This document shows, piece by piece, positions 4,987 to 63,372 of a stretch of DNA of 64,000 bases. Where the stretch lies: NCBI GenBank assembly GCA_016209685.1, contig JACQVQ010000008.1, positions 129,778 to 193,777 of the forward strand, in the 5' to 3' direction. Source of the stretch: Planctomycetota bacterium (GTDB taxonomy: Bacteria > Planctomycetota > Brocadiia > Brocadiales > Bathyanammoxibiaceae). How positions within the stretch are numbered: position 1 is the first letter of the stretch; each line of letters opens with the position of its first letter. A program made the position numbers and the translations under genes. The notes beneath the pieces were generated by a model. That model did no database searches, had not been told where the DNA came from, and was given only the letters and a program-made list of their open reading frames with translations.

Positions 4987-5177
4987 GAGACCTCTGCGAA
5001 AGTCTACACAGCACTACCTGTCATTCTGACCCTGAACGAAGTGAAGGGGAAGAATCTCTAGACCCTTCGCTTTCGCTCAGGGTGACACTTCGTGCCAGAT
5101 TCTTCGGTCGCTTCCCCTTCGCTCCGCTCAGGGCTTCGGCTCGGAATGACATGTGAGTAGGGTTTTGCAGGGGTCTC
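4987..5177. mobile_element. MITE, composite 191-bp copy, TSD AGTTT
   Basis: Ends are GAGACCTCTGCGAAAG...TTTTGCAGGGGTCTC. Flanked by AGTTT at 4982-4986 and 5178-5182. Internal GTCATTCTGA.../...GGAATGAC hairpin modules. Confidence 0.85.
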
Positions 5178-5275
5178 AGTTTGTGACAAAAGCGTTTTAT
5201 TCCCATTGTCCTGGAGATAGGTCCGCCTCAGGCGGATGAGACCTGCCCTGAACCGTGCTGGTTCAGGGCCTGCCC

Positions 5276-6013
5276 CTATATTTTCTCCTCCACCTCTGGC
5301 CTCCTGAGATAGAGGGGTTGGAGTTGGAAGGGGTCGCTAATCTCGTCCTTCTCGTAGAGTTGAACCCCCAACCTGGCCACGACCCTTGCCCTTGCCGTCC
5401 CCAGTCCACCATCTTTAATTATAATCCCATCCACGTGAAAGAGTTCCTTGTAAGGGGGTACACCATCTCCAAAGATTAGGACGGGTCTTGGGAGGAGGGG
5501 TAGCAGGGAATGGGGCTCAATGGCCATGCAGTCGGTCTGTCTCTGCCATACGCCATTTACTGGTCTGTAAATACAGGCATAGACCGCCCTCCTCTTGGCA
5601 TCCAGGATTGGGCAGATGGGTGTATCACCGGGGGTAACGTTCTCCGCCAGGACGTCCAGTGTGGGTACTGCTACCAGGGGTTTCCTTAGTACATAGGCCA
5701 GGGTCTTGGCACACGTTATCCCTACCCTGAGACCGGTAAAGGAACCTGGCCCGTGGCTTACTGCAATAAGGTCGGTATCCTCTGGCCGCCAGCCCAGGTC
5801 CCTGAAGATTTCCTCTATGGAAGGGAGTAGTGCCTGGCCGTGTCTCTTGACGCCAGGCCCACCTGGGCCTGCCCTTGAGCGGAGCGAAGGGGTAGATACC
5901 GCCCCCCTCTCAAAAGACCTCTCCCCCAGGGTGGTAAGGCCCCCCCCAACGCTACCCTCGCACACGGCCACACTACCCACCATTCCAGAGGTCTCTATAG
6001 CTACCACCCTCAA
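5276..6013 (-). CDS. tsaB: tRNA threonylcarbamoyladenosine (t6A) biosynthesis protein TsaB, carrying a repeat-derived in-frame insertion
   Basis: MRVVAIETSG...AVSHGPGSFTGLRVGI motifs with a TTG start. The segment VSTPSLRSRAGPGGPG (about 5851-5900) is encoded by a repeat module also present at 43796-43845. Confidence 0.85.
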   Translation of the reverse strand: MRVVAIETSGMVGSVAVCEGSVGGGLTTLGERSFERGAVSTPSLRSRAGPGGPGVKRHGQALLPSIEEIFRDLGWRPEDTDLIAVSHGPGSFTGLRVGITCAKTLAYVLRKPLVAVPTLDVLAENVTPGDTPICPILDAKRRAVYACIYRPVNGVWQRQTDCMAIEPHSLLPLLPRPVLIFGDGVPPYKELFHVDGIIIKDGGLGTARARVVARLGVQLYEKDEISDPFQLQPLYLRRPEVEEKI

Positions 6014-6149
6014 GTGTATACCTCCTAAAGGGATTGTAGACAGAAGATTGGAAATTGGAAATTTTAAATTTTAAAATTTCCAATCTTCAATTTCTAATTA
6101 TTCTACTCCCTACTCCCTACTCCCTAGTCTTTACCCCCTTACAATTTAC

Positions 6150-6178
6150 TTGACACAGGGGTTGGGTTTCCATAATAA
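6150..6178 (+). promoter_or_regulatory. Sigma70-like promoter TTGACA-N17-TAATAA upstream of the histidine kinase
   Basis: Sequence read directly: ttgacacaggggttgggtttccataataa. Confidence 0.4.
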
Positions 6179-6290
6179 TAAATTTATAATTTCTGTGCAC
6201 ATACCAGTTTGCCGCCTGGCCTTGTAACAGCTTGTAATAGTTAAGGTATAGCTGGCGAATCAATATTTTCCTCCTGAGAGGGGTAGTCTG

Positions 6291-8012: not shown

Positions 8013-8084
8013 TGGCGTGCGAATAGTGCCTGAGGTACCTGCCCGGAGTAGGGGGTAGGCCCTGCACCACCCTTGTACCACAAG

Positions 8085-8164
8085 GGTACAGGGCAAGGGT
8101 GTAGGACAAAGCCCTGTACCTAATTATTGGTACGGGGCAAGGGTGCAGGGTAAAGCCCTGTACC
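8085..8164. repeat. Two tandem copies of a hairpin unit (GGTACAGGGC-N16-GCCCTGTACC) between the kinase and regulator genes
   Basis: 8085-8120 has a perfect 10-bp stem. 8129-8164 is the same unit with one G/T mismatch. A partial third unit follows. Confidence 0.8.
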
Positions 8165-8201
8165 TGATTGGTACAGGGGAGTAGGGTGTAGGGAGAAGAG
8201 G

Positions 8202-9614: not shown

Positions 9615-9861
9615 AAATACACATTTATGATTATTCCAGCCGCACAGTGGCTGGACTCCACACAGAACGCACACTCTAGTACACAGGCATGTATACTAGA
9701 GTATACCCACCCAGGTCTTTTATTATTAAGCACTTACACCTGTCGCCCCACGGCTTGCCAACGGGGTTGTAACAGGGCCGTCCTCATTTGCACTCACAGA
9801 AGTTGTACCAACCCCTTTACTCTCAAGAAGTTAAGAAAAGGCTTGAGGCATGGTTACTAAA

Positions 9862-9877: not shown

Positions 9878-9927
9878 ACCGTGTCTAGGGCGAGGTGGAA
9901 AACTTATATATATTTGGGTGAGATTGC

Positions 9928-10398: not shown

Positions 10399-10420
10399 TT
10401 AGGTAAAAGGAGAGGGAGTT

Positions 10421-15478: not shown

Positions 15479-16648
15479 ATGACAAAGGTTTACAATTGGC
15501 AGCTGGGGCGGGAGATGGAATACCCGTACGAGGCCGCCCGCCCAAAGAGACAATTCGCTGCGGTCTTCAATATAAACCGTTGTATAGCCTGTCAGACCTG
15601 TACCATGGCCTGTAAGAGCACCTGGACCTTCTCTAAGGGGCAGGAGTTCATGTGGTGGAACAACGTGGAGACCAAGCCTTTTGGAGGCTTCCCGCAGTCC
15701 TGGGACTCCAAGGCCCTCCAGCTCCTTGGCCCGCAACCAGGTTGGGATGCCGGCAGTAAGGCACATGATTCTCCCCATGGAAAGTACAAAGGGGAGACCC
15801 TATTTGAGGCCGCCGGCAAGAGGATTGACGCCAGCGGACAACAGGCCCTGGGATACGTCCCTGAGGATAAGGAATGGCGCGCCCCTAACTTCTTTGAAGA
15901 TACCGCCAACCGTTCCCCCAAGACCGTTAATGGCGTACAGGAAGGGGCCATGCTCCCTGAACACCAGATATTCTTTTTCTACCTGCAGAGGATTTGTAAC
16001 CACTGCACCTACCCTGCCTGTCTGGCGGCCTGTCCCAGGAAGGCCATATATAAGAGGCCAGAGGACGGTATAGTCCTCATAGACCAGAGCCGCTGCCGGG
16101 GTTACAGGAAGTGCGTGGAACAGTGTCCCTATAAGAAACCTATGTTTAACGGGCAGACCAGGGTCTCTGAGAAGTGTATAGCCTGTTATCCCAGGGTGGA
16201 GGGGAAAGACCCCATGAGCGAGGGAGACCCCATGGTCACCCGTTGTATATCAGCCTGTGTGGGGAAGATAAGACTACAGGGCTGGGTGGATGACCCGGAT
16301 AGCCCTGTCCATTACCTGGTGAGGAAAGAGAAGGTGGCCTTGCCCTTGTATCCCCAGTTCGGGACTGAGCCTAACGTGTATTATATACCGCCCAGGTGGG
16401 CCCCGAGGGGCTATCTACATCAGATGTTTGGCCCTGGTGTGGACGAGGCTATTGCCAAGTACACTAAACCTTCCCACGAACTCCTGTCCGTACTGCAGCT
16501 CTTTGGTGTAACGCAGAAGCTCATCTACTGCTACGAGGTCACCGCAGACACCATCATTGCCTACGGCAGGGAGCATAAGGAGATTATGAGGGTACCCGTC
16601 AACGAGGCCGTGCTCGTCAGGGATGAGAAGTACCTGAACGTTACTTAA
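15479..16648 (+). CDS. nxrB: Fe-S beta subunit of NXR-like enzyme
   Basis: MTKVYNWQLGREMEYPYE..., ferredoxin-type motifs CIACQTCTMACK, CNHCTYPACLAACP and CRGYRKCVEQCP. RBS AGGAGG. Confidence 0.85.
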   Translation: MTKVYNWQLGREMEYPYEAARPKRQFAAVFNINRCIACQTCTMACKSTWTFSKGQEFMWWNNVETKPFGGFPQSWDSKALQLLGPQPGWDAGSKAHDSPHGKYKGETLFEAAGKRIDASGQQALGYVPEDKEWRAPNFFEDTANRSPKTVNGVQEGAMLPEHQIFFFYLQRICNHCTYPACLAACPRKAIYKRPEDGIVLIDQSRCRGYRKCVEQCPYKKPMFNGQTRVSEKCIACYPRVEGKDPMSEGDPMVTRCISACVGKIRLQGWVDDPDSPVHYLVRKEKVALPLYPQFGTEPNVYYIPPRWAPRGYLHQMFGPGVDEAIAKYTKPSHELLSVLQLFGVTQKLIYCYEVTADTIIAYGREHKEIMRVPVNEAVLVRDEKYLNVT

Positions 16649-16656
16649 AAATACCC

Positions 16657-16710
16657 GTAGTCGCAGGCTTTAGCCTGCGTGAAGTAACGCAACCTAAAGG
16701 TTGCGGCTAC
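16657..16710. repeat. Paired REP-like hairpins (GTAGTCGCAGGCTTTAGCCTGCG ... CGCAACCTAAAGGTTGCGGCTAC)
   Basis: Two hairpins in inverted orientation with GTAG/CTAC heads. Related single hairpins occur at 49444-49467 and 55036-55058. Confidence 0.8.
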
Positions 16711-16727
16711 TATACAAGGAGACGTTG

Positions 16728-17504
16728 ATGCAAGAAGCTGGGAAAGAGGTTGTGGTGAAAGAATCCCCTGACGAAGAGAGGGCCCAAAAGGCCCTGGCCA
16801 GGAGCAGTTTCTATGGCATCCTGTCCAGGGGCTTCGCCTATCCCACCGAAGAGGTTCTGGGGGAGATAAAGGCAGGTGCCACCTCCAACGAGCTAAAGGG
16901 TTCGGCCGCCTGCCTGGGGGAGGGACTCTTGCAATCCGTGGAGGCCCTCTGTGAGGCTATGGAGAGGGAGATAGCCCCCCTCGGACTGAGGGAGGTGGAG
17001 GGAGGCTATAACAGGATATTCTCCATGGGTCTCCTGTGTCCCCATCATGAGACGTTTTACACCTCTGCCCATGTCTTTATGAAAAGCCAGGATCTGGCAG
17101 ACATCCAGGGCTTTTACAATGCCTTCGGTTTCCGTCTCGCAGAGGAACAAAAGGAACTGGCGGACTTTATAGGGACTGAGCTGGAGTTCATGTACGTCCT
17201 TTGCTTTAAGGAGTACCATGCAATAAAAAAGGGTGAGAAAGATAAGGCCGACCTCTGCCGTGAGGCCCAGGCCAAGTTTGTGGAAGGACATATTGGCACA
17301 TGGACAGAGGCCTTCTCTATGACTCTCACGGTTAGTTCGCACATGGACTACTTTATAACCCTGGGGAGGTTGTTAGAAAAGTTTGTGGATTTTGATTGCC
17401 AGTATCTCGGAGTGGCTCCCAAGAAGGTATCGGCGCCGGAAGAGGGATGGAAAAGAGAGACGGAGCCGCTCAGTTGTGGAGAAGATATACAAGGACTGAA
17501 GTAA
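16728..17504 (+). CDS. TorD/NarJ-like redox enzyme maturation chaperone (NxrD-like)
   Basis: ARSSFYGILSRGFAYPTEE motif, typical of this chaperone family. I start it at ATG 16728 (RBS AAGGAGA) rather than the track's TTG at 16701, which lies inside the REP element. Confidence 0.65.
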   Translation: MQEAGKEVVVKESPDEERAQKALARSSFYGILSRGFAYPTEEVLGEIKAGATSNELKGSAACLGEGLLQSVEALCEAMEREIAPLGLREVEGGYNRIFSMGLLCPHHETFYTSAHVFMKSQDLADIQGFYNAFGFRLAEEQKELADFIGTELEFMYVLCFKEYHAIKKGEKDKADLCREAQAKFVEGHIGTWTEAFSMTLTVSSHMDYFITLGRLLEKFVDFDCQYLGVAPKKVSAPEEGWKRETEPLSCGEDIQGLK

Positions 17505-25015: not shown

Positions 25016-25339
25016 GTGGTAAATAGGGGATGTATACCCGTGGGAATTGAGCAAAAATATCTCCTCAGGCTAAAAGAGCTGGTGATAAACTTCCTGAAGG
25101 ATAGAGAAGTAAAGATAATCCTCTTTGGTTCAAGGGCAAGAGGACAGGGCTCCCCTTTTTCTGATGTAGATATTGGTATTGTACCTTCTGGGGAGTTGAG
25201 CGATAGGGAACTGGCCATTTTGAGAGAGAGGATTGAGGATTCCAATATCCCTTACAAGGTAGAAGTAGTAAACTTTTCTGAGGTCTCAGAAGGGTTTAAG
25301 AAAAGTGCCTTAAAAGGGGCGATAGTTTGGAAAGACTAA
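25016..25339 (+). CDS. Minimal nucleotidyltransferase (MNT) of an MNT/HEPN pair
   Basis: GSRARGQGSPFSDVDIGI (GSx10DxD). 13-nt overlap with the HEPN gene. Confidence 0.8.
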   Translation: MVNRGCIPVGIEQKYLLRLKELVINFLKDREVKIILFGSRARGQGSPFSDVDIGIVPSGELSDRELAILRERIEDSNIPYKVEVVNFSEVSEGFKKSALKGAIVWKD

Positions 25340-25802: not shown

Positions 25803-27602
25803 ATGATTCAATCTCAGTCGCTATCAATATTGAAGACGGGTGCAAATGTTTTTTTGACTGGTGAGCCCGGGTCAGGCAAGACGCATACGATCAACGAGTA
25901 TGTAGCGTATTTGCGGGCGCGAGGTATAGAGCCGGCAATCACGGCCTCAACGGGCATCTCCGCAACGCACATCGGCGGGATGACCATTCATTCGTGGAGC
26001 GGTATAGGAATTAAAACGAAATTGGACAAAGGCGATCTTGATAAAATCTCATCCAATCCATACATAGTAAATCGCATCAATCGCACCAAAGTCCTTATCA
26101 TAGATGAAGTGTCCATGCTTCCTCCTGAGACCCTCTCCATGATCGATGCTATTTGTAGCAAAATCAAACAGAGTTCAGGGCCGTTCGGGGGTATTCAAGT
26201 CGTCCTGGTCGGCGACTTTTTCCAATTGCCGCCGATTGTAAAAACAGGAGTGGGGAACGACTCGCAAACAATGTTCATTGAAGAGTTGCCGGCCCGTTTC
26301 GTTTACGACTCTCTTGCGTGGGGACGGGCAAACTTGGTCGTCTGCTATCTCACCGAGCAGTACCGGCAGGACGACAGCGATTTTCTTACTTTGCTCTCAG
26401 CAATTCGGCGCAACGCCTTCGGTGAAGACCACTTGTGCCACATTAAAAGCAGAAGAATTGGTCATCGTGCCGCACCGAATGGCGCACCGAAACTCTTTTC
26501 GCATAATGTAGATGTGGACCGTGTCAATGACGGAATACTCGCTAATCTTCCTGGCGAGTCAAAAGTATTTACCATGTCTTCGCAAGGTCCGGACGTGCTC
26601 GCCTCCGCACTTAAGAGAGGATGCCTTTCGCCAGAGACGCTTTACCTCAAAGTCGGAGCGGCCGTGATGTTCACAAAAAATAATCCGAAAGAAGGATTCG
26701 TGAATGGCACGCTTGGTGCGATTGAAGAATTTGATAAGCACAGTGGCTATCCAATCGTGAAGACACGGAGCGGAAGACGGATTGAGGTTGAGCCGATGGA
26801 CTGGGCAGTGGAAGAGAATGGAAAAATTCGGGCGCAGATTACGCAATTGCCACTTCGTCTTGCCTGGGCAATCACTGTGCATAAGAGCCAGGGGATGAGT
26901 TTGGACGAAGCGGTGATGGATTTAAGCAATGTCTTTGAATTCGGGCAAGGGTATGTCGCACTCTCGCGCGTCAGGCGGCTTTCGGGTCTGTATCTTCTTG
27001 GCTGGAATGAGCGTGCGTTTCAGGTGCACCCCGAAGTATCGGAAAAGGATGCGGAGTTCCGCACTCAGTCGGAGCAGACGGCGCGCACGTTCAGCAAGGT
27101 TGCGGGAGACGAGATTACAGCAATGCACGAGCGGTTCATTCACCTGTGCGGGGGGGAAATTATCCCAGAAAGCCGCGTTAGTGCGACGATAGCGTCTCGC
27201 CCTCTACACACGGCCCACGAGGACGGAAACACCCGAGGCGAGCGGCGCTGGGAACGCACCCTTGCCCTTATTCGGTCTGGAAAGACGATCGCTGAGGTTG
27301 CGAAGATGCGCGGCCGGACTGAAGGAACAATCCTGGAACATCTGGAGGCGCTTCGGGCACTCAATAAACTATCGGTACAAGATATTGCGCATCTAGCGCG
27401 CGGGTCTGAGGAGGCAATCGCCAAAATCCATAGGGCGTTTTGCGAACTCGGCACTAATAAACTCTCGCCTATTTTTAAAAAACTTGGCGGCGCATATTCA
27501 TACGACAAGTTGCGAATAGCCCGACTAATGCTCAACGAACAATTCCCACAGGAAACTTCTGTGTCATCTGGTTTTGAGAAAACAAGAGAAAGAGACCTCT
27601 GA
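25803..27602 (+). CDS. PIF1/RecD-family ATP-dependent DNA helicase with a C-terminal HTH-like extension
   Basis: Walker A GEPGSGKTH, LIIDEVSM, GDFFQLPPI, TVHKSQGMS. Arg codons are mostly CGN, unlike the neighbouring genes (AGR). The last codons and the stop lie inside a MITE. Confidence 0.85.
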   Translation: MIQSQSLSILKTGANVFLTGEPGSGKTHTINEYVAYLRARGIEPAITASTGISATHIGGMTIHSWSGIGIKTKLDKGDLDKISSNPYIVNRINRTKVLIIDEVSMLPPETLSMIDAICSKIKQSSGPFGGIQVVLVGDFFQLPPIVKTGVGNDSQTMFIEELPARFVYDSLAWGRANLVVCYLTEQYRQDDSDFLTLLSAIRRNAFGEDHLCHIKSRRIGHRAAPNGAPKLFSHNVDVDRVNDGILANLPGESKVFTMSSQGPDVLASALKRGCLSPETLYLKVGAAVMFTKNNPKEGFVNGTLGAIEEFDKHSGYPIVKTRSGRRIEVEPMDWAVEENGKIRAQITQLPLRLAWAITVHKSQGMSLDEAVMDLSNVFEFGQGYVALSRVRRLSGLYLLGWNERAFQVHPEVSEKDAEFRTQSEQTARTFSKVAGDEITAMHERFIHLCGGEIIPESRVSATIASRPLHTAHEDGNTRGERRWERTLALIRSGKTIAEVAKMRGRTEGTILEHLEALRALNKLSVQDIAHLARGSEEAIAKIHRAFCELGTNKLSPIFKKLGGAYSYDKLRIARLMLNEQFPQETSVSSGFEKTRERDL

Positions 27603-27722
27603 AAAAGTCACTCCAACAGCATGTGTCATTCTGAGCGAAGCGAAGAATCTGGTCGTTTAGGAGATTCTTCGGTCGCTTCGCTCCCTCAGAATGACATGTG
27701 AGCAGAGTTTTTCAGAGGTCTC
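27592..27722. mobile_element. MITE, 131-bp copy, TSD AGAAA
   Basis: Perfect 15-nt TIR GAGACCTCTGAAAAA / TTTTTCAGAGGTCTC. AGAAA flanks it at 27587-27591 and 27723-27727. Confidence 0.9.
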
Positions 27723-27806
27723 AGAAAAACATTCAAATGCCTACTAATTTAAAATGGGGACACATCCCCTATTTTCTTATACTATTTTAATTATCTCGCC
27801 AGTACG

Positions 27807-45408: not shown

Positions 45409-45431
45409 CTTCTCACCCCTTTTCATTAAAT

Positions 45432-45673
45432 GAGACCTTTGCAAAAGTCTCAACCACACTACTTGTCATTCTGAGTGAGCCAAAGCCCTGAGCGGAGCGA
45501 AGGGGAAGCGAAGAATCTAGACCCTTCGCTCCGCTCAGGGTGACATTTCGGATTAGAGATTCTTTCCGCCTCAGGCGGGCTTTGCTCCCTCAGACGCCGT
45601 CAGATTCGCTTCGCTCACTACAAGCCTGAGCGAAGCCGAAGGAATGACATTTAAGGTGTCTTTCAGAGGTCTC
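45432..45673. mobile_element. MITE, composite 242-bp copy, TSD TAAAT
   Basis: GAGACCTTTGCAAAAG...CTTTCAGAGGTCTC. TAAAT flanks it at 45427-45431 and 45674-45678. Sits between the stop of the type IIG gene and the PEBP start. Confidence 0.88.
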
Positions 45674-48600
45674 TAAATATCCTTCTCTACGCCTGGATAG
45701 ACATCGTCAATAGCCTTCTGGACTTTAATGGTTTTCTGGAGTGTGGTGATAATCTTACAGTAATACTTTATATCATTAAGGGATAACCTTCTTCCTTTTC
45801 TAGCCTTTTTCCTATCCTTTAGCCATTTATCGCAGACTTGGTAGCCCCCGATTTGATATTGCCAGACTCCTTCTTCTAGCCCTTCAAAATATTGGTTTGG
45901 GTTTATATAGACCTTGTCTTTATCATATCTAACCTTTTCAACCACGTTATCCCCCTTACCTTGAAACTTGGCAACGGGTGGGTCAAGCTCAGGGGACTTT
46001 AATAGGTGTAAATCAACCAGTTTTTTCCCATATTCTCCCATCTTGCAGAAAAGCTTATAATCTTTCGTGAAGGGGATCCTTGGAAAATCAATCTTTAGAA
46101 ACTCGGCGTACTTTGTGCGGTAGGTATTGGAGTAGAGGACGGCATAGATGTAATGGAAGATTTGCTCAGGAGAAGGTGTCTTCTTAAAGGCTTTTGTTAG
46201 TTGTTCCATAAGTGCAGGGGAGAGGTTCGGCCTCTTTGCCCCATACTCTGCCTGTGACTCAAAGAGCATCATAATACCACCTGAAGATTTCTTTTTAGGG
46301 TTGTCCTTCTCTGGGTAGAGGTAGAGGGGGGCTTGTTGAATAATTCCTCTACTACTTAGGAATGTCCTATTGTCGACTATGTGTTCACTCACAAGAAAAT
46401 GGGTGTAATCTTCCTCTAATGAGACCTGTCTCATGAAGCAAATTGACAAGTTCTCCTGTACCATATGACGCATGACCTCTGGACGTGGTCTACAATGAAA
46501 CCCCCCTGAATTGCCAGTATAGTAGGTGTATCTTACGTCAAATGGTCTGTATAGAATTGGGACCATCTTTTTCCTGTCTAGGCCGCTTTCTTTCAAATCT
46601 TTTTGGGCTGTCTCTATGCTCCAGTCTTTTGAATCCTTGCCTAGATTATAAGCCCTTCGTGCTAACTCTTTATCAATCTTAGAAAAGTTTAATACTGTAG
46701 ACCAGACCTCATCAGGCGTCCACCTTATGGTCAGACTATCCCTTGCCGTAACTATTCCTACACTGTTTACGGGGAAGATGTCGGTTATCTTTAGATACTT
46801 CTCATAATTTTTTAAAAGTTTTTCGTCTCTCGGAATAAAGAGATAGAATTCAGATTTGGGTGACAGCGTTCGCCACTTGGTCGTTTCTATATCATGCTTC
46901 AGGAGCCAATTGTATTTCTTCTCCCACAACCCCCAAACCTCTGAATGATAAACCTTACACCCTTTCTTCGTACCCTGCCTCTTTATGAAAAGGGCAATAG
47001 CTACTCCCTGCTGTATATCAAAGACGTTCTCGTCTTTAGAACCATCAGGACATTTCTCCTTTTTCCGGGTGTTGCCGTGCAAATCAAGTAAATAAATCTC
47101 ATTAAAACTGTCCATCAGGGACTTTCGCATACCCCTAAAGGTGGGGTTATCAAGATAGCTATGGTTGGTGATGAATCCTAAAACCCCTTCCCCGGCCGTA
47201 TCTATCTTCCACTGGGCGAAACGGATAAACTTTACGTAATCGTCCTGAAGCCACTTGGGATTCTTTTCCCCTAAAGGCTTTCCATCAACCTGATAGTAAG
47301 CCCTACTCTCCTTTGATATCCATTCTCCCAGATTGTAGGAATGGCCTGAATAGGGCGGATTACCTAGTATGGCTAGTATAGGCTGTTCCTTTTTGATCTT
47401 TCCTGCCGAATGGGATTCCTCAGAGAGAGAGGCCATGCCGGGGAGTTCTGTCTGGGCCAGTTCTTCCATTTCTAACGTATTGGTTAGGTAGAGTTTGAAC
47501 CTGTCATCTTTCTGTAGTCTGTAGCCAAGTTCTTCCAGGAGGAAGGACATCTTCAGGTGGCCCACTGCGTAAGGGGCCATCATCAATTCAAAGGCATAGA
47601 AATTTTTGAGGATGTGCTCTTTTATGAGATTCTCTCTTCCGCCTTCACCATATTTGGAGCAGAATTCCTCCACTGCCAATTTGCTTGCCTCGGCCAGGAA
47701 GGTGAGGGTGCCGGCGGCTGGGTCTAGAACGGTAACCGAGGTACTCGCAAATCCGTTCTGCCTATCAAAACCCTCTTTCAAGACCTTATGCAAGGAGCGG
47801 ACGATATAGGAAACAACAGGTTCAGGCGTATAGTATACGCCCCTCTTCTCTCTAGTTGCCGGGTCGTATTCAGCCAGAAAGGTCTCATAGAAGTGGATGA
47901 TAGGGTCTTTGCCCATCCCTTCGTGAAAATATTTATGGAGGATATTTTTTACATCGGTAATTGCTAAGACCTCTGAGATGTCATCAGTAATCCACTCCAT
48001 CTGCTGGGGTAGTTCGCCAAGTGAAATGAATTGGAAAACATCCCTTAAAATGCCTATAGTAGGTGGAATTTTGTTGTATGCGAGTTTTCTATTGAACCCA
48101 TTCTCAGAGCGGGTACGTGCGGCAAAGAGTCCGTATGTAACGGTCTGTGAGTAGAGGTCGGCAAAGTCCTCCCCAGAGAGGTCGCTTATAAGATATTGTT
48201 TGAATGCCTGATAGAACCCCAGGATAAACCCTTTCCCTGCCTTTTCTTCTTCCTTCAGTTCCTGTGCAACGACCTCGTCCTTCAAGAAGCGTGTCCGCTT
48301 TGCCAGTTCTACCGCCAGGGTCTTTGCGTCGTAGACCCTGGGCAGGGAGAAGGAAAAGAATTTTTCTAGTAGTTTAAGAAAATTTGACTCTTTTTCTGCC
48401 GGCGGGACGGTTTTAAGCTGATGGGCAATAAAAGGTCTACCAACAAGGACTTTATCTATTAATATGCCGTTGCGATAAAGCCTGAATTCAAAGAAGTTGG
48501 TCAGTATCAGGTTGGGGAAGGTGTGCAGGTAGCGTTTCAGCTGGCCCGTAGTTTCTATCTGGTCTAAATACTCTGTGGTGGGGCTTTTGGCCTCAACATA

Positions 48601-48810
48601 GCCAACTATATGCTGTTTCCCGTCCCACACCCTGAAATCGGGGTTACCTGCCTCTGTCTTCTTTGGGAGGGTGGTTACATGTATGTCTTGTTTGTTTACT
48701 GATTTTGCATATTCTTCCAACAGTTCTTTGAGAATGGGGTAATAACTTTCCTCCCTGGCATCCCCCTGGCTGGCAACCTCAGATATTTCTTTTAGATATG
48801 GTTTTAACAC
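45673..48810 (-). CDS. Single-polypeptide type IIG-like restriction-modification enzyme (PD-ExK nuclease, gamma-class N6-adenine methylase, specificity region)
   Basis: N-terminal PDFRVW...GYVEAKSP (PD...ExK). Motif I VLDPAAGTLTF. Motif IV GNPPYSG. C-terminal FHYIYAVLYSNTYRTKYAEFLKIDFPRIP. AT-rich. Confidence 0.75.
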   Translation of the reverse strand: MLKPYLKEISEVASQGDAREESYYPILKELLEEYAKSVNKQDIHVTTLPKKTEAGNPDFRVWDGKQHIVGYVEAKSPTTEYLDQIETTGQLKRYLHTFPNLILTNFFEFRLYRNGILIDKVLVGRPFIAHQLKTVPPAEKESNFLKLLEKFFSFSLPRVYDAKTLAVELAKRTRFLKDEVVAQELKEEEKAGKGFILGFYQAFKQYLISDLSGEDFADLYSQTVTYGLFAARTRSENGFNRKLAYNKIPPTIGILRDVFQFISLGELPQQMEWITDDISEVLAITDVKNILHKYFHEGMGKDPIIHFYETFLAEYDPATREKRGVYYTPEPVVSYIVRSLHKVLKEGFDRQNGFASTSVTVLDPAAGTLTFLAEASKLAVEEFCSKYGEGGRENLIKEHILKNFYAFELMMAPYAVGHLKMSFLLEELGYRLQKDDRFKLYLTNTLEMEELAQTELPGMASLSEESHSAGKIKKEQPILAILGNPPYSGHSYNLGEWISKESRAYYQVDGKPLGEKNPKWLQDDYVKFIRFAQWKIDTAGEGVLGFITNHSYLDNPTFRGMRKSLMDSFNEIYLLDLHGNTRKKEKCPDGSKDENVFDIQQGVAIALFIKRQGTKKGCKVYHSEVWGLWEKKYNWLLKHDIETTKWRTLSPKSEFYLFIPRDEKLLKNYEKYLKITDIFPVNSVGIVTARDSLTIRWTPDEVWSTVLNFSKIDKELARRAYNLGKDSKDWSIETAQKDLKESGLDRKKMVPILYRPFDVRYTYYTGNSGGFHCRPRPEVMRHMVQENLSICFMRQVSLEEDYTHFLVSEHIVDNRTFLSSRGIIQQAPLYLYPEKDNPKKKSSGGIMMLFESQAEYGAKRPNLSPALMEQLTKAFKKTPSPEQIFHYIYAVLYSNTYRTKYAEFLKIDFPRIPFTKDYKLFCKMGEYGKKLVDLHLLKSPELDPPVAKFQGKGDNVVEKVRYDKDKVYINPNQYFEGLEEGVWQYQIGGYQVCDKWLKDRKKARKGRRLSLNDIKYYCKIITTLQKTIKVQKAIDDVYPGVEKDI

Positions 48811-49442: not shown

Positions 49443-50532
49443 TGTAGCCGCAGGCTTTAGCCTGCGTATAGAGGATACAATAGGCCCCCCAATACCTCAA
49501 CAAATAAGTAATATATTAGTAATTCGCCCGGGTGCCCTGGGCGATTTCGTTCTGACCCTGCCCGTCTTTGCCTATCTCAGGAGGAAGTTCCCACAGGCCC
49601 GCATAGAAGTCATGGGCTATCCCTCCATTGCCGAGATGATAGTGGGAAGATATTATGCAGACGGGTTCGCCCGTTTCGACCAGCCTGAGGTGTCCTATCT
49701 CTTTCTGAACGACCTCCCACTGCCTGAATGCCTTGAAAAATATCTCTCCAGGTTTGATATGATTATCTCTTTCCTGCATGAAAGGGTCTTTATGGAAAAT
49801 CTCAGACGGGTAACCACTGGCTGCGTGCTGTCTCAGAACCCCCTGCCCAAGCCCAACGGGACTACCCATGCCGTTGAACACCTCTTGTCCGCCGTGGGCG
49901 GATGGGGAGAGGCAACTGCTGAAGAAAAGACCCCAAGGGTCTTCCTTAAGGGAGAGGATAGAGGATGGGCCTCGGATTTTTTGGACAAACACCTTAACCA
50001 TTCCGCCCCAATAGTGGCCATGCACCTGGGCAGCGGTGGACGCAAGAAGTGCTGGCCGGTAGAGGGTTTCATCTGTCTGGCCTTCTACCTCAGGAAAGAG
50101 TTAGGGGCCCAACTGCTCCTGGTCTCTGGCCCTGCCGACGAGGAGGTAACGGGCTACTTCTTAAATTATACTCAACCAAGACCTCCACTACTCCATAACC
50201 TCCCCCTACCCAAACTAGCGGCCGTACTGGAGAGGTGCGACCTCTTCATAGGAAACGATTCTGGCGTAACACACCTTGCGGCGGCCACGGGTGTGGCTAC
50301 CCTGGCCCTCTTCGGCCCCACAAGTCCAGCAGTCTGGGGGCCCAGGGGTGAGAGGGTAAGGATCGTTCAAGGTAATCCACCTCAGGCGGATTGTTCTCCC
50401 TGCAGTCCGGAGGAGCGGGGTCGCTGTCAGCGGCCTGCTTGTATGGAGGTTATCACTGTAGGGCAGATAATCAGGACGGCAGAGGAGGTCTTGGGGACTG
50501 CCTGCCCTAACAGTCCGTGTCATTCTGAGTGA
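49396..50532 (+). CDS. Glycosyltransferase family 9 (heptosyltransferase-like)
   Basis: ILVIRPGALGDFVLTLP and GNDSGVTHLAAA. The true start is probably downstream of the REP hairpin at 49444-49467. The last 6 codons and the stop lie in a MITE fragment. Confidence 0.8.
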   Translation: MSPSWENSLRRNNRIDVAAGFSLRIEDTIGPPIPQQISNILVIRPGALGDFVLTLPVFAYLRRKFPQARIEVMGYPSIAEMIVGRYYADGFARFDQPEVSYLFLNDLPLPECLEKYLSRFDMIISFLHERVFMENLRRVTTGCVLSQNPLPKPNGTTHAVEHLLSAVGGWGEATAEEKTPRVFLKGEDRGWASDFLDKHLNHSAPIVAMHLGSGGRKKCWPVEGFICLAFYLRKELGAQLLLVSGPADEEVTGYFLNYTQPRPPLLHNLPLPKLAAVLERCDLFIGNDSGVTHLAAATGVATLALFGPTSPAVWGPRGERVRIVQGNPPQADCSPCSPEERGRCQRPACMEVITVGQIIRTAEEVLGTACPNSPCHSE

Positions 50533-50639
50533 GCCGAAGCCCTGAGCGTAGCGAAGGGGTAGCGAAGAATCTAGTTAGAGATTCTTAGGTCGTTTCACTC
50601 ACTCGGAATGACATCTGTTCGGAATTCTTCAGAGGTTTC
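50518..50639. mobile_element. MITE fragment lacking the left TIR
   Basis: TGTCATTCTGAGTGAGCCGAAGC...GGAATGACATCTG...TTCTTCAGAGGTTTC. Confidence 0.7.
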
Positions 50640-50817: not shown

Positions 50818-51289
50818 TCAGATTTCATCTAAGATTTTCTTAATCAAAGGTTTTAATTGGGGTATCCTTTCTTTAATAGCTGTCCAGACTAATCTATAAT
50901 TTACTCCGAAGTAGATGTGAATCAGCTTGTCTCTCATCCCTGCCATTTCCTTCCAGGGGATTTGTGTGTATTTTTGTTTTATACCTTCTGGAACGTTCTT
51001 TGAGGCCTCCCCGATAATCTCAAATTTCTTTACGACTGCGCTTGAGGTCTTATCGTCTTCTTTAAATTTTTCAAAACTCGAGACCTCTGAAAAAGTCTAC
51101 ACAACACTACTTGTCATTCTGAGCGAAGCGAAGAATCTGGTCTTTTAGGAGATTCTTCGGTCGCTTCGCTCCCTCAGAATGACATGGGAGCAGGGTTTTT
51201 CAGAGGTCTCAACTCATATCTTCCACAAATTTTTCTATTCTCTCCATAGCATCCAGGATGTCTTTTAGATAAAGTTTGTAGTCTCTCAT
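50818..51289 (-). pseudogene. hepT: HepT (DUF86 HEPN toxin) gene interrupted by a MITE
   Basis: Own translation: MRDYKLYLKDILDAMERIEKFVEDMS, then the MITE (creating a TGA), then, after removal of the MITE and one TSD copy, an in-frame FEKFKEDDKTSSAVVKKFEIIGEASKN...MRDKLIHIYFGVNY...ILDEI* (Rx4HxY motif). ATGA overlap with mntA. Confidence 0.85.
51080..51210. mobile_element. MITE, 131-bp copy, TSD AACTC, inserted in hepT
   Basis: GAGACCTCTGAAAAAGTC...GGTTTTTCAGAGGTCTC. AACTC flanks it at 51075-51079 and 51211-51215. Confidence 0.9.
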
Positions 51290-51579
51290 AGATAGACTAC
51301 CTCTTTTAATACAGATTCTTTAATTTCTTTTCTCAAATCCTCTTTTGGCACTACGTCTACCTTTTGATTAAACCTTTCCTCTAAGAATAGGGCCAACCCC
51401 ACAAGGTCAAAAATGTCAGCACCATCTTCAAAGTCCACAAGAATATCTATGTCACTCGTTTCCTTTTGTTCCTTTCTTATGACAGAACCAAAAATGCCTA
51501 TCTCTTTCGCCTTAAAGCTGGCTTTAATTTCCTTTTTTAACTGCTCTAGCGTTCTTAATATCTCTTCCTTTGTCTTCAT
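51286..51579 (-). CDS. mntA: MntA-type minimal nucleotidyltransferase antitoxin
   Basis: GIFGSVIRKEQKETSDIDILVDF (GSx10DxD). 97 aa. Confidence 0.85.
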   Translation of the reverse strand: MKTKEEILRTLEQLKKEIKASFKAKEIGIFGSVIRKEQKETSDIDILVDFEDGADIFDLVGLALFLEERFNQKVDVVPKEDLRKEIKESVLKEVVYL

Positions 51580-51633
51580 GGCTCATTTGTCCTTAACTTG
51601 TCATTTTTAAAGGCGTCCAGAAGGATAAGCCAA

Positions 51634-51706
51634 GTAGGGTGCGTGGTAACGCACCATTTTCATTCATTTCCTATTTTTCAAGACGGTGCGTAAAAACGCA
51701 CCCTAC
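51634..51706. mobile_element. Second small palindromic element family (73 bp): GTAGGGTGCGTGGTAACGCACC ... GGTGCGTAAAAACGCACCCTAC
   Basis: Each end is itself a GTAG-headed hairpin. A 114-bp relative lies at 63373-63486. Confidence 0.75.
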
Positions 51707-51752
51707 ATTTTCTTATAAATCTCAAATGGCAACTGGTAATAGTCAATACGAT

Positions 51753-51922
51753 GAGATCTCTGAAAAATTCCACTCGCTTGTCATTCCTTCGGCTTCGCTC
51801 AGGACGGCGTCTGAGAGAGTGAAACGACCGAAAATCTCTTAAAAGACTAGATTCTTCGCTTCCCCTTCGCTGCGCTCAGGGCTTTGGCTTACTCAGAATG
51901 ACAGGCACTACGAAAGAGGCCC
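51753..51922. mobile_element. Degenerate composite MITE copy
   Basis: GAGATCTCTGAAAAATTCC...GTCATTCC...CAGAATGACAGG...AAAGAGGCCC. The right end is diverged and no clear TSD remains. Confidence 0.6.
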
Positions 51923-51942
51923 TTGGTGAGCCTTCAACATTA

Positions 51943-53522: not shown

Positions 53523-53588
53523 GCCCCAATATTGGTACTCTTTTATTATAAGAAATAATCTGTTATTATCCTACTGCAGAACCAGATG

Positions 53589-53719
53589 GAGACTTCTGCA
53601 AAACCCCACGCACTTGTCATTCTGAGGGAGCGAAGCGACCGAAGAATCTCTTAAAGGAATAGATTCTTCGCTTCGCTCAGAATGACAGATAGTGTCATTA
53701 CGACTTTTTCAGAGTTCTC
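53589..53719. mobile_element. MITE, 131-bp copy, TSD AGATG
   Basis: GAGACTTCTGCAAAA...CTTTTTCAGAGTTCTC. AGATG flanks it at 53584-53588 and 53720-53724. Confidence 0.88.
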
Positions 53720-53757
53720 AGATGGGATAGTTCAGGAAAGTCGGGCATTTCCATACA

Positions 53758-56956: not shown

Positions 56957-56968
56957 GCCTACAGCAAG

Positions 56969-60128: not shown

Positions 60129-61029
60129 ACCAAGAAAGCTGTCCTTTGAGGAGGCATGGGAAAGTACAACTGAATTCTTTGTTGATGATAGTGTAGAAGA
60201 AGAGGTTGACAAGAAGATTGAAAATATATACACGGCGACCCGTGGGGTTCATAAGTTTGAAAATATAGACGAGTTTGCCCAGTTTTTAAAAGATGAAGAA
60301 GGTGCGTTAGACTCCGTTTTGGCAGACGTTGGCCTTCCACAAGAGAGATTCAAAAGAATAATAACTTTGTTAAGGAGAAAAGGTAGGATACCAGGAGGTT
60401 TTGACCAGGAATGGGGTATTGGAAGGATAAGAAGACTACTCGTGGACAACGCATTCGCCCATACAATTGCAAACGTCCTTTTCCATGGTAAGGAAGACCC
60501 TTTCCTGAAGAGATACCTCCCGAAATATTACCGAGAAAAGTTAAATTGGGAAGAAATTAGCGACTACGAAGGGAGAAAATTAAAAATAAAAGAAACTATT
60601 TATCGTAGAGAATACGCAAATATCAGGGGCAGAAAGATAGAAGAAATTATAGGGAAAAAACTTGAGGCCATTAAACGCAAATATGGAATAGATTACGGAC
60701 GAGGGCGTTCAAGGCTAGTAGATGTTGACGTTGACTGGGCAGTTCCTGGGGTAGAGGCCCCCTGGGTAGTTATAATGGTTTCCTATCAGGAGACTACATC
60801 CAGTGGACAGACAACGAAGGCACGTGATATGTTGAATGCCTATAATCGCATACGCACTTCAAACAGCCGGAATAGAGAGAACAGGGCTTTTGTTAATTTT
60901 ATTGATGGAGTGGGTTGGCTGGCAAGAAAGGCTGACTTTAAAAGACTTATAGGTGAATGCCATTACTTCTTAAATCTGAAAAATCTGGACATACTGGAAG
61001 GGATCGTGCTAAAACACGTAACTAAGTGA
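60115..61029 (+). CDS. Putative restriction endonuclease partner of the 58410 methylase (assigned by context only)
   Basis: GTG start 4 nt after GGAGGTG, 14-nt overlap with the methylase gene, AT-rich. I could not pin down a catalytic motif. Confidence 0.4.
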   Translation: MKPPEPRKLSFEEAWESTTEFFVDDSVEEEVDKKIENIYTATRGVHKFENIDEFAQFLKDEEGALDSVLADVGLPQERFKRIITLLRRKGRIPGGFDQEWGIGRIRRLLVDNAFAHTIANVLFHGKEDPFLKRYLPKYYREKLNWEEISDYEGRKLKIKETIYRREYANIRGRKIEEIIGKKLEAIKRKYGIDYGRGRSRLVDVDVDWAVPGVEAPWVVIMVSYQETTSSGQTTKARDMLNAYNRIRTSNSRNRENRAFVNFIDGVGWLARKADFKRLIGECHYFLNLKNLDILEGIVLKHVTK

Positions 61030-61035
61030 TTAACC

Positions 61036-62493
61036 ATGAGCCTGAAGATATATAACACACTCACCAGAAATAAAGAAGAGTTTAAGCCCTTACATGAGGG
61101 CATGGTGGGTATGTATGTCTGCGGCCCTACGGTGTATGACCACCCCCACCTGGGCCATGCCAAGAGCTACGTCAGCTTTGACGTGGTGGTACGCTACCTC
61201 CGCTACCGGGGTTATAAAGTTCGCTACGTGCAGAACATCACCGACGTGGGCCACCTGACGGATAATGCCGACGCAGGGGAGGATAAGATAGAACTGCGGG
61301 CACGCCTGGAGCGTCTTGAGCCTATGGAACTGGTGGAGAAGTACATGAGGAGCTACTTTGAGGATATGGACGCCCTGAACGTCTTAAGGGCAGACATATC
61401 CCCCAGGGCCACGGGACACATACCTGAGCAGATTGGACTCGTAGAGAAACTCCTTGAGAAGGGGCAGGCCTACGAGGCGGGAGGTTCGGTGTATTTTGAC
61501 GTTAGGAGATTTGAGGGCTACGGAAAGCTGTCTGGACGAAGACTGGAGGAGTTACAATCCTCCGTAAGGATAGAGCCTAACCCTGAGAAGCGTTACCCAC
61601 TGGACTTTGCCCTCTGGAAGAAGGCACTGCCTGGACACATCCTCAGGTGGAGAAGCCCCTGGGGGGAGGGTTTCCCTGGCTGGCACCTGGAGTGCTCGGC
61701 CATGTCCATGAGGTATCTTGGAGAGACCTTTGATATACATGGAGGCGGTCTGGAGAACGTCTTCCCCCACCACGAGTGCGAGGTTGCCCAGAGCGAGGCC
61801 GCCAATGAAAGGCCGTTTGTGAGGTATTGGATGCACAACAACATGGTAACCGTGGGCGGGCAGAAGATGGGGAAGTCTCTGGGTAACTTCGTCACCCTCA
61901 AACAGGCCTTTGAGAGACATCTACCTATGGTGGTGCGGTTCTTCATCCTGAATTCCCACTACCGCAGTCCACTGGATTACACGGAGGAGGCCCTGGGGGC
62001 GGCCGCCAATGGACTGGAACACCTCCTTATAGCCGTAAAGACGGTAAAAGAGAGGTTGAGATACTCTAAGGAGTTAGCCCCGGAAAAGGCCATCCTGGAC
62101 CAGATTGAGGCCCACAGGAGACTCTTCCTGGGGGCCATGGACGATGATTTTAACACCGCAGAGGCACTGGCCGCCCTCTTCCAGTTCTCAAGGGGAGCCA
62201 ACCTTATCCTGGGTTCCGGTCAGGAAATAAGTCACCAGGCCCTCCTGGAGATGGATAATTTCTATCGCACCCTTGGGGGAGATATACTGGGTATAATTAC
62301 TGAGGCCCCGCAGTTAACAACGGGTAGAGATGAAAAAGAGGAGGCCTTAGTCCAACTCCTGATAGAGACCCGTAACCGTTTGCGTCAGGCCAAGCAGTGG
62401 CAACTGGCCGATGAGTTGCGTAGCCAACTGGACAAGTTGGGGATACTCCTGGAAGATAAACCTGAAGGGACTCAATGGAGGAGGAAGTTGTAA
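61036..62493 (+). CDS. cysS: Cysteinyl-tRNA synthetase
   Basis: HLGHAKSY (HIGH), KMGKSLGN (KMSKS), WHLECSAM. Confidence 0.95.
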   Translation: MSLKIYNTLTRNKEEFKPLHEGMVGMYVCGPTVYDHPHLGHAKSYVSFDVVVRYLRYRGYKVRYVQNITDVGHLTDNADAGEDKIELRARLERLEPMELVEKYMRSYFEDMDALNVLRADISPRATGHIPEQIGLVEKLLEKGQAYEAGGSVYFDVRRFEGYGKLSGRRLEELQSSVRIEPNPEKRYPLDFALWKKALPGHILRWRSPWGEGFPGWHLECSAMSMRYLGETFDIHGGGLENVFPHHECEVAQSEAANERPFVRYWMHNNMVTVGGQKMGKSLGNFVTLKQAFERHLPMVVRFFILNSHYRSPLDYTEEALGAAANGLEHLLIAVKTVKERLRYSKELAPEKAILDQIEAHRRLFLGAMDDDFNTAEALAALFQFSRGANLILGSGQEISHQALLEMDNFYRTLGGDILGIITEAPQLTTGRDEKEEALVQLLIETRNRLRQAKQWQLADELRSQLDKLGILLEDKPEGTQWRRKL

Positions 62494-62569
62494 TATATGG
62501 AGTCCAGTCCGCCTGAGGCGGATGTCGCTGGTATAAATCCATTGACTTTAAAGAAAGTAAGGAGTTGCG

Positions 62570-63256
62570 GTGAAGTTAAAGACAGCTAATAGCCCCCTGG
62601 TTACGCTACAGATGGTGAAGGACCACCCGGACGTGCAGGTCTACATAGACAAGGCGGACGAGTTTTTGGGCAACATTGGTTATACGGAGCATGGCAGGCG
62701 TCATGCCAACTACGTAGCCCATAACGCCGGCAGGATTCTCAGGGAGCTTGGCTACGAAGAAAAGTCCTGCGAACTGGCGGCCATTGCGGGCTACATCCAC
62801 GATATAGGGAACGTGGTCAACAGGCCCTCTCATCCCGCAACCGGGGCCTACCTGGCCCATCAATTCCTCAGGGAACTTGGTATGCCACTGGAAGACGTCC
62901 TTGCCGTGATGGGGGCGATAGGTAGTCACGACGAGGACTGCTGTGAACCCGTAAACGTGGTAGGTGCGGCACTGATAATTGCAGATAAATCAGACGTCCA
63001 CCGCAGTCGTGTCCGCTCCCCCAAGGAGATAAGGTTTGATATACACGATAGGGTTAATTATGCAGTAAGGAGGGCCGAGCTTAAATTAGATACAAACAGA
63101 AGGCTTATCAGCCTGGAGCTGGACATAGACAGGGACATCTCTGACATGGTGGAGTACTTTGAGATATTCACCACAAGGATGGTCGCCTGCCGCCGAGCCG
63201 CCAAACTCCTGGGCTGTACCTTTGAGGTACAGGTGGTGCAGGAGAATGGGAAATAG
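62570..63256 (+). CDS. HD-domain phosphohydrolase-like protein
   Basis: HGRRHANYVA...GYIHDIGN (H...HD). GTG start after AAGGAG. Confidence 0.75.
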   Translation: MKLKTANSPLVTLQMVKDHPDVQVYIDKADEFLGNIGYTEHGRRHANYVAHNAGRILRELGYEEKSCELAAIAGYIHDIGNVVNRPSHPATGAYLAHQFLRELGMPLEDVLAVMGAIGSHDEDCCEPVNVVGAALIIADKSDVHRSRVRSPKEIRFDIHDRVNYAVRRAELKLDTNRRLISLELDIDRDISDMVEYFEIFTTRMVACRRAAKLLGCTFEVQVVQENGK

Positions 63257-63260
63257 GAGT

Positions 63261-63372
63261 GAGAACTCTGCAAAACGCCCAAAATGTCATTCTGAGTTGC
63301 CGAAGGCAACGAAGAATCCCAGCCAAAACACGAGATTCTTCGCTTTGCTCAGAATGACAAGGGGTGGAGTTT
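63261..63372. mobile_element. MITE copy whose right end is replaced by the 63373-63486 element
   Basis: GAGAACTCTGCAAAACG...GTCATTCTGAG...CAGAATGACAAGGGGTGGAGTTT, then GTAGGGTGCG begins. Confidence 0.7.

Follow-up and report, generated by a model that had tools for sequence, protein, structure and literature searches.

A hairpin-forming MITE family with 5-bp target-site duplications in a Brocadiales genome, very probably moved by an IS5-family transposase supplied in trans

The window, a 64,000-nucleotide stretch of a Planctomycetota genome of the order Brocadiales (contig JACQVQ010000008.1, positions 129,778 to 193,777 of the forward strand), holds eight copies of a small hairpin-forming element among its genes. 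The copy at 4987 to 5177 (plus strand) is a 191-bp composite with extra interior hairpin modules and TIRs with 2 mismatches each; its target-site duplication (TSD) is AGTTT (4982 to 4986 and 5178 to 5182), and it has a TsaB-like gene on one side and a PhoU-like gene on the other, upstream of the ATP synthase operon. An intact 131-bp copy with perfect 15-nt TIRs (27592 to 27722, plus strand; TSD AGAAA at 27587 to 27591 and 27723 to 27727) sits in the final codons of a PIF1-like helicase gene, whose product now ends in ...RERDL before the stop (599 aa) and upon in silico excision ends in ...REKHSNAY (602 aa). The second composite, of 242 bp (45432 to 45673, plus strand; TSD TAAAT at 45427 to 45431 and 45674 to 45678), is inserted at the TAATG stop/start overlap between a Type ISP restriction-modification gene (45673 to 48810, minus strand) and a PEBP gene. 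Both of these frames are unbroken by the insertion, the stop having changed from TAA to TAG.

A truncated copy without its left TIR (50518 to 50639, plus strand) has a glycosyltransferase-9 gene on one side and a 72-aa ORF on the other, whose ends run into it. An intact 131-bp copy with perfect TIRs (51080 to 51210, plus strand; TSD AACTC at 51075 to 51079 and 51211 to 51215) splits a HepT (DUF86) toxin gene (50818 to 51289, minus strand) into an N-terminal part at 51216 to 51289 and a C-terminal part at 50818 to 51079; the gene is downstream of its MNT antitoxin partner (51286 to 51579). The copy at 51753 to 51936 (minus strand) is full length, old and decayed, with 1 mismatch in the TIR at 51753 to 51767, a degenerate second TIR at about 51920 to 51936 and no recognisable TSD. 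A further 131-bp copy (53589 to 53719, minus strand; TIRs with 2 and 1 mismatches; TSD AGATG at 53584 to 53588 and 53720 to 53724) is inverted relative to the other two of that length and lies between divergent TauE and PEMT genes. The copy at 63261 to 63372 (minus strand) is truncated, has one TIR only and ends exactly where a GTAG-tagged hairpin-pair repeat, a separate resident of the window, starts (63373 to 63487).

An earlier note on this DNA had listed eight copies in 64 kb, comprising three of 131 bp, composites of 191 and 242 bp, and three fragments. Its coordinates and lengths for the 131-bp copies and the composites agree with ours, as do its insertion contexts (a toxin gene, gene 3' ends and a 5' leader), which we identify as the HepT toxin gene, the last codons of the helicase gene, the Type ISP/PEBP overlap and intergenic leaders. 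Two of its fragments, 50518 to 50639 and 63261 to 63372, are indeed truncated, but the third, which it ended at 51922, is a complete decayed copy that runs to about 51936. When the three 131-bp copies were made into an nhmmer profile, it matched the eight loci in the window and nothing further. A ninth copy lies directly outside the window, and the subfamily was also found in other Brocadiales MAGs; a blastn search of the PLSDB plasmids with the MITE gave no match.

Both ends (GAGACCTCTGAAAAA / TTTTTCAGAGGTCTC) are present in five of the eight copies, and the 15-nt TIRs are perfect in two of them and carry 1 to 2 mismatches in the other complete copies. Allowing up to 2 mismatches, GAGACCTCTGAAAAA matches the window 14 times versus 0.14 expected (none of 100 shuffles reached 14), an enrichment of about 100-fold above chance that bears out the TIRs described in the earlier note, and 13 of these matches are ends of the eight elements. 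The 14th (25273 to 25287) lies within an MNT gene, lacks a MITE interior and is probably due to chance. The copies measure 131 to 242 bp, and the long hairpin that had been reported for their interior spans the whole length, with folding energies as DNA of -28 to -43 kcal/mol (z-scores relative to shuffled sequences, -5.7 to -10). This interior hairpin is G+C-rich and made up of modules (GTCATTCTGAGCGAAGCGAAGAATCT / its complement), and the intact copies are mutually 84 to 92% identical.

Such an interior could be a functional unit in its own right (for example a structured RNA, a terminator or stabiliser, or a site that binds proteins and is kept by the host), with the TIRs as a mere vehicle and retention of the copies reflecting selection too. 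This would fit with the high stability of the hairpins, with their persistence in old copies that have no TIRs and with the way in which copies at the 3' ends of genes and at one operon junction leave the reading frames unbroken. It would also fit with the 'GTCATT-hairpin-AATC' arms, which recur, around stems of other sequence, in MITEs from other phyla. We nevertheless consider a functional hairpin very unlikely as the explanation of the family, given that the copies occur in both orientations and that one of them destroys a gene; moreover, Rfam at gathering thresholds returned tRNA-Ala only, with no RNA family matching the MITE, and a simple scan for promoters and terminators made no call within the copies.

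The reading that we prefer, that the copies are MITEs spread by a transposase, draws on their flanks. All five complete copies in the window have exact 5-bp TSDs, each different; these five repeats, already given in the earlier note, were confirmed by direct reading and again by a script. When TIR pairs 80 to 330 bp apart were counted in the listed MAG loci and the window (n = 57), the script found exact 5-bp TSDs in 30 of the pairs, for a chance expectation of about 1 in 1024 per pair. The 38 duplicated 5-mers are A+T-rich (79% A+T) and no two are alike; they are therefore not part of a longer conserved end. Inconsistent duplications and 5-mers embedded in a longer conserved end were the two outcomes that the earlier note had named as contrary to transposition, and neither was found.

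The interrupted HepT gene provides a second line of evidence. In silico removal of 51080 to 51210 together with one AACTC yields an intact 111-aa HepT ORF, 95 to 98% identical to intact 111-aa database proteins. Three contigs of a relative (L115, L117 and L121), which are about 91% identical to the window and have the same gene order, carry the empty site, with a single GAGTT versus GAGTT-MITE-GAGTT in the window. This precise filled/empty pair, which the earlier note had proposed looking for, shows transposition of the MITE directly and independently confirms the reading of the copies as MITEs with 15-nt TIRs and 5-bp TSDs. Elsewhere, the relative shares the copy at 50518 to 50639 (L115, 3268 to 3372), which is therefore old. 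Between these two orthologues, one arm of a hairpin differs by a 28-bp module. Half of the copy at 51753 to 51936 is also found in L115, and the relative's TauE-PEMT intergenic region is unrelated in sequence to that of the window.

No transposase was found within the window, as had been noted before, or when each of its ends was extended by about 8 kb, and tblastn with four transposases matched neither the window nor any of the Brocadiales loci examined. Two widely spaced TIR pairs in Brocadiales, of 1305 bp in L103 and 1394 bp in L045, have ordinary genes between them and no transposase. Full-length elements with identical TIRs, the other object that the earlier note had suggested seeking, were found in other MAGs and in metagenomes, and they belong to the IS5 family. 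One of them (L105) is 1157 bp long, encodes a 316-aa transposase and has the TSD CACTT, and another (L073) is 1203 bp long and encodes a 325-aa transposase; each is bounded on both sides by a perfect GAGACCTCTGAAAAA. Their transposases exceed the cut-offs for Pfam DUF772 and DDE_Tnp_1 and for NCBIfam NF033581 (IS5 family), and genes bounded by perfect GAGACCTCTGAAAAA score 180 to 265 bits against NF033581 (cut-off, 140). In these matches, in their length (1.15 to 1.2 kb) and in ends that start with GA, the two elements resemble the IS5 group, with its single-ORF DDE transposase and DUF772 N-terminal domain. The variant end GAGACCTCTGCAAAA occurs in IS copies and MITE copies alike. The closest annotated plasmid transposases are less than 40% identical.

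These shared ends also bear on the idea that the copies are palindromes of the REP/REPIN kind, which a RAYT (Y1 transposase) or recombination, and not a DDE transposase, would have spread. Like GTAG-tagged, RAYT-moved REPs, the MITE is small, G+C-rich and palindromic over a long interior and is mostly intergenic, and a true GTAG-tagged hairpin-pair repeat coexists with it in the window. REPs, however, have neither IS-type TIRs nor a TSD, whereas this family has both: its 15-nt TIRs are identical to those of IS elements with DDE transposases, its 5-bp TSDs are exact and variable, and it has a precise empty site. In addition, the MITE ends start with GAGACC and bear no GTAG or CGTC tag. We regard REP-like spread as extremely improbable, and the earlier note had rejected it as well.

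For movement by an IS5-family transposase, the TSD length helps to indicate the kind of helper. The canonical TSD of the IS5 group is 4 bp, which the L073 type matches, whereas the L105 type and the MITEs have 5 bp. The L073-type IS, which has 21 nt in common with the MITE left end, was at first considered as the parent and was rejected as the best candidate, as all ten of its copies have 4-bp TSDs in a specific palindromic target. Among 30 L105-type copies with flanks in metagenomes, 8 have an exact 5-bp TSD and 16, on short metagenome contigs, have none. Because the L105-type TSDs are 5 bp, like those of the MITE, we consider the L105-type IS the likely kind of helper. The sequence that the MITE has in common with L073 and L105 is confined to 15 to 21 nt of the ends, and it is therefore at most a type II MITE; its origin as a deletion product of the IS (a type I MITE) was discarded, its interior being an unrelated hairpin. 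With so little in common, descent of the MITE from an L105- or L073-type IS is conjectural.

A helper from the IS1182 family, which is related to IS5, appears unlikely. Two 1.9-kb elements (L015 and L019) encode transposases of 541 to 566 aa whose scores against NCBIfam NF033551 (IS1182) exceed the cut-off; in each element, GAGACCTCTGAAAAA is perfect at one end and has 2 to 3 mismatches at the other. They are flanked, however, by the 4-bp CTAG and not by a 5-bp A+T-rich TSD; no such element was found in the Brocadiales loci examined, and these two were the only examples seen.

Our preferred explanation, which the sequences make very probable, is that the family consists of MITEs moved by an IS5-family DDE transposase supplied in trans. 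The MITEs would carry only the TIRs that this transposase recognises, and the transposase itself may be encoded elsewhere in the same genome or may have been acquired transiently. It would bind the two 15-nt ends (GAGACCTCTG[A/C]AAAA), and the element, excised or copied, would then be joined to a target whose strands are cut 5 nt apart. Repair of this stagger would produce the 5-bp TSD; short A+T-rich 5-mers would serve as targets. The interior does not derive from the transposase gene (a 'type II' MITE), and hairpin modules are gained or lost over time. That such a transposase acts in trans in this particular genome is an inference, as is the cut-and-paste chemistry.

We compared the family with described bacterial MITEs. 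MITEAba12 (Acinetobacter), whose parent ISAba12 is co-resident, has 9-bp TSDs and GGCTTTGTTGCACAAA ends and retains its TSD in 40% of copies (PMC6382973). The two have much in common: both are non-coding elements of about 110 to 130 bp with TIRs that match an IS, A+T-rich targets and the ability to disrupt genes, and in both the TSD is equal in length to that of the proposed parent IS and is retained in part only (30 of 57 TIR pairs for the window type). The window MITE differs in its 5-bp TSD, in its GAGACCTCTGAAAAA end and in having no parent IS in the region examined. Chunjie (Geobacter uraniireducens) and Nezha (Anabaena/Nostoc) are likewise hairpin-forming bacterial MITEs, of 130 to 235 bp. 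Chunjie is reported to have 21-bp TIRs and 9-bp TSDs, unlike the window MITE, and the reference copy of Nezha has a 10-bp TSD. An identity with Chunjie, Nezha or MITEAba12 was rejected on TSD length (9, 10 and 9 bp, respectively) and on the ends. A literature search for the TIR and hairpin strings across 8 million papers returned no relevant one; its single match, a Neisseria dRS3-like string, is a lead only. The family apparently has no existing name, and it is an ordinary, well-proven kind of mobile DNA.

The earlier note had called the family active-looking, a description that proved overstated and held only in part. At least two copies are older than the divergence from the relative of about 91% identity, three of the eight are truncated or decayed, and the identity of 84 to 92% among the intact copies suggests older activity. 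Within the species we observed no site that was filled in one assembly and empty in another: its assemblies carry the same insertions, the three NCBI assemblies and the Logan contigs being filled or ending inside the MITE. Current activity is unproven, since the copies differ by 8 to 16% and no such polymorphism was seen.

The results leave the current understanding of MITE function unchanged. They offer a clean demonstration of MITE insertion, made from sequence only through the filled/empty pair, and they tie the 5-bp TSD to a particular IS5 sub-lineage. Contigs of groundwater anammox-type genomes repeatedly end inside copies, so that the family breaks short-read assemblies, and the copies create false ORF ends and false starts in annotation. 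The family has inactivated one HepT toxin gene and has separated a translationally coupled restriction-gene/PEBP pair without frame damage. In at least six bacterial phyla, the same TIR bounds many MITE families whose interiors are unrelated, and the TIR together with the 5-bp TSD is a simple handle for finding such families across phyla. More tentatively, and with more doubt than confidence on our part, the 15-nt end may define a very broad and hitherto undescribed superfamily that includes an IS5 sub-lineage with 5-bp and not 4-bp TSDs and dozens of these MITE families, reaching a few viral contigs and possibly archaea, with the recurrent arms under structural selection or acting as exchangeable modules. 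If true, this would explain a widespread class of G+C-rich hairpin repeats in environmental genomes and the spurious small 'hypothetical proteins' to which they give rise.

Copy 51080-51210 of the MITE (copies are named here by their start coordinates) interrupts a HepT (DUF86) toxin gene, with the MNT partner alongside. Removal in silico of its 131 bp and one AACTC restored a continuous 111-aa HepT ORF, and with the restored protein as a query, we recovered intact 111-aa proteins (P0001-P0007) that were 95 to 98% identical over 100% of the length. These are encoded on three contigs of a relative (L115, L117, and L121), which are syntenic with the window at ~91% nucleotide identity and share with it the gene order PEMT, TauE, 249-aa protein, MNT, HepT, 72-aa ORF, and glycosyltransferase-9. 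At the insertion point, the three contigs read ...GATATGAGTTTTGAG... with one GAGTT, and the window reads GAGTT-[MITE]-GAGTT. The locus is thus a precise filled/empty pair and direct proof of transposition, and the 5-mer is therefore a target-site duplication, not element sequence. Excision in silico of copy 27592 changed the end of a PIF1-like helicase from ...RERDL* to the longer ...REKHSNAY*, and excision of copy 45432 recreated the TAATG stop/start overlap of a Type ISP restriction gene and a PEBP gene. Copy 45432 sits in this former overlap (window 45424-45431 and 45673-45678), and the two genes (restriction-modification, with PEBP downstream) now lie 247 bp apart; the duplication preserved both reading frames, with the stop codon changed from TAA to TAG.

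The terminal 15-mer GAGACCTCTGAAAAA, with at most 2 mismatches allowed, had 14 matches in the window (0.14 expected), a number attained by 0 of 100 dinucleotide-preserving shuffles of the window. Thirteen of these matches were ends of the eight elements described in the earlier note; the 14th (25273-25287, 2 mismatches) lies within an MNT nucleotidyltransferase gene, without the MITE interior, and is probably due to chance. An nhmmer profile made from the three 131-bp copies and run on the window matched precisely the eight MITE loci and no others, with copies 4987, 27592, 45432, 50518, and 51080 on the plus strand and copies 51753, 53589, and 63261 on the minus strand. The lengths originally given for five copies (131, 131, 131, 191, and 242 bp) were correct, and their 5-bp flanking repeats (AGTTT, AGAAA, TAAAT, AACTC, and AGATG) were legible in the sequence and were recovered again by script. 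The 131-bp copies folded as DNA into a single long hairpin (-28 to -43 kcal/mol; z-scores against shuffles, -5.7 to -10). A further copy of the family lies ~4 kb left of the window start, between aminotransferase and response-regulator genes (L228, ~16606-16753).

The earlier note had asked whether copies elsewhere might lack consistent duplications and whether the 5-mers might belong to a longer conserved end. A GTDB scan with one genome per species (query GAGACCTCTGAAAAASYC) returned at least 107 stretches. In the window and the loci among the matches listed, 30 of 57 terminal-repeat pairs 80 to 330 bp apart had an exact 5-bp duplication, for which chance predicts ~1 in 1024 per pair, and the 38 duplicated sites (IS copies included) were all different, with 79% A+T and weakly palindromic A/T flanks. 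Together with the filled/empty pair, the duplications bear out the reading as a MITE: the window repeats are a genuine, well-supported IS5-type MITE family with 5-bp duplications. Elements with this terminal repeat formed, among the matches listed, many families with unrelated interiors. Several "Deltaproteobacteria" MAGs have one of 223 bp, another delta MAG has one of 230 bp, and further families occur in Verrucomicrobiota, Ignavibacteria, FCPU426, and a Synechococcus MAG. The window family is one of a broad group of MITEs with one common terminal repeat. The same terminal repeats bound elements of 91 and 100 bp on two IMG/VR viral contigs (L219, 2530-2620, with an apparent 8-bp duplication, GCCTGCGC; L220, 3514-3613, with the 5-bp duplication ACTTT).

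No IS5-like transposase was found in the window or within ~8 kb on either side, so the statement that no transposase was in sight holds for this whole region. Full-length IS elements with perfect copies of the MITE ends were found outside the window, at L105 (1157 bp, 316-aa transposase) and L073 (1203 bp, 325-aa transposase). Both transposases matched Pfam DUF772 and DDE_Tnp_1 and NCBIfam NF033581 (IS5 family) well over cut-offs, with only ~35% identity to each other. The parent of MITEAba12, ISAba12, was assigned by identical terminal repeats and identical duplication length (PMC6382973), and we applied the same logic here. In the long-read MAG MFD01231.bin.1.77, ten loci (L123-L132) each carry an identical 1203-bp L073-type copy at 1430-2632, and the target of all ten is the palindrome TTTRAC-NNNN-GTYAAA, duplicated over 4 bp. 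The L073 lineage therefore matches the MITE poorly, and its strong target specificity is apparently for another repeated sequence. The L105 element itself is flanked by the duplication CACTT. Among 80 metagenomic relatives (L139-L218; 82 to 94% identical), 30 were complete at both ends and had flanks, and an exact 5-bp A+T-rich duplication was present in 8 of these. No duplication was present in 16 of the 30, the flanks of which resemble the usual A+T-rich targets; contigs misassembled across repeats, or recombination among copies, may account for its absence. The variant end GAGACCTCTGCAAAA occurs among L105-type ends and also on several MITE copies. On these sequence features, the L105 lineage fits the MITE better than the L073 lineage does. 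IS5-group elements usually make 4-bp duplications, and a 5-bp sublineage would amount to a minor variant inside this family.

IS1182-family elements at L015 and L019 had one perfect shared end each and were flanked by CTAG. The MITE had only 15 to 21 nt of ends in common with any IS examined and is thus of the terminal-repeat-sharing kind rather than an internal-deletion derivative. The closest annotated plasmid transposases to the L105 protein were <40% identical and were named only "IS5 family transposase." In "Deltaproteobacteria" bin_276, the terminal repeat is followed by an apparent gene start, ATGAAACGATTAATTAAAAAG... (L006, 1-145; L107, 3754-3911), in both cases no more than ~160 bp from an end of the locus; this may be the beginning of a full-length element in the genome that has the 223-bp MITE family.

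When aligned, 14 copies (window and other Brocadiales MAGs) shared a fixed scaffold: the terminal repeat, a 12- to 18-nt noncomplementary spacer, GTCATTCTGAG...GAAGCGAAGAATCT, a loop, the complementary arm, a second spacer, and the second terminal repeat. In the "composite" copies, additional modules are present at defined points of the arms or loop, and identical modules reappear in copies of different genomes. Just such a module, the 28-bp TGAGCCGAAGCCCTGAGCGTAGCGAAGG in one arm of the hairpin, distinguishes copy 50518 (window 50540-50567) from its ortholog in the relative (L115, ~3300-3330), indicating that gain or loss of modules occurs in place, perhaps through slippage or conversion between copies. 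This module also occurs at window 45465 and 51753 and at L005 3341. Arms of the form GTCATT-hairpin-AATC, with differing stems, were found in other-phylum MITEs with the same ends; their recurrence could reflect common descent, structural selection, or function, and a cross-phylum superfamily with selected hairpin modules seems unlikely.

In a second small repeat family (window 51634-51707 and 63373-63487; L093, ~5230-5340), which is REP/REPIN-like, a GTAG-tagged hairpin (GTAGGGTGCGTGGTAACGCACC ... GGTGCGTnAAAACGCACCCTAC) occurs as inverted pairs; the hairpins were terminator-like in a simple scan. Both window copies adjoin MITE copies, and MITE copy 63261 is truncated exactly at the start of the repeat at 63373. 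A ~213-bp deletion in the relative (window 51630-51841 versus L115 2403-2416) removes half of MITE copy 51753 and the entire adjacent GTAG-tagged repeat.

The ~91% identical relative carries copy 50518 at the orthologous site and half of copy 51753 but lacks the HepT insertion, indicating that insertions occurred both before and after the split. The family had been called active-looking, which suits the anatomy of five copies but goes too far for present activity: identity among the three intact 131-bp copies is 84 to 92%, three of the eight window copies are truncated or decayed, and no empty alleles were found within the species, every same-species assembly having the same insertions or ending inside them.

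The window is chromosomal (50% G+C). On it are genes for ATP synthase, for restriction-modification, and for a nitrite-oxidoreductase-like molybdopterin enzyme with multiheme cytochromes, along with toxin-antitoxin pairs of the MNT/HepT type. Its DNA is present at >99.8% identity in the NCBI MAGs GCA_052360985.1 and GCA_052361005.1, and GCA_052360745.1 encodes identical proteins in unchanged gene order. Of the loci retrieved, the closest relative with a name was "Planctomycetes bacterium RIFCSPHIGHO2_12_FULL_52_36" from Rifle groundwater (~90% identity across 512 bp), and the subfamily with the window-type interior occurs in MAGs labeled Brocadiales, Brocadiia, or Planctomycetota. Three named MITEs belong to other families, with duplications of 9 bp in Chunjie (which has 21-bp repeats) and MITEAba12 and of 10 bp in Nezha; the terminal-repeat and hairpin strings had no match in the literature searched, and the family is probably unnamed so far. 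Six same-species short-read contigs (L002, L112, L113, L114, L230, and L231) end within MITE copies, near window 5043, 27600, 51200, and 53640, and such repeated stops indicate that the family causes assembly fragmentation. The importance of the family lies mainly in annotating and assembling these genomes and in its value as a clean example.
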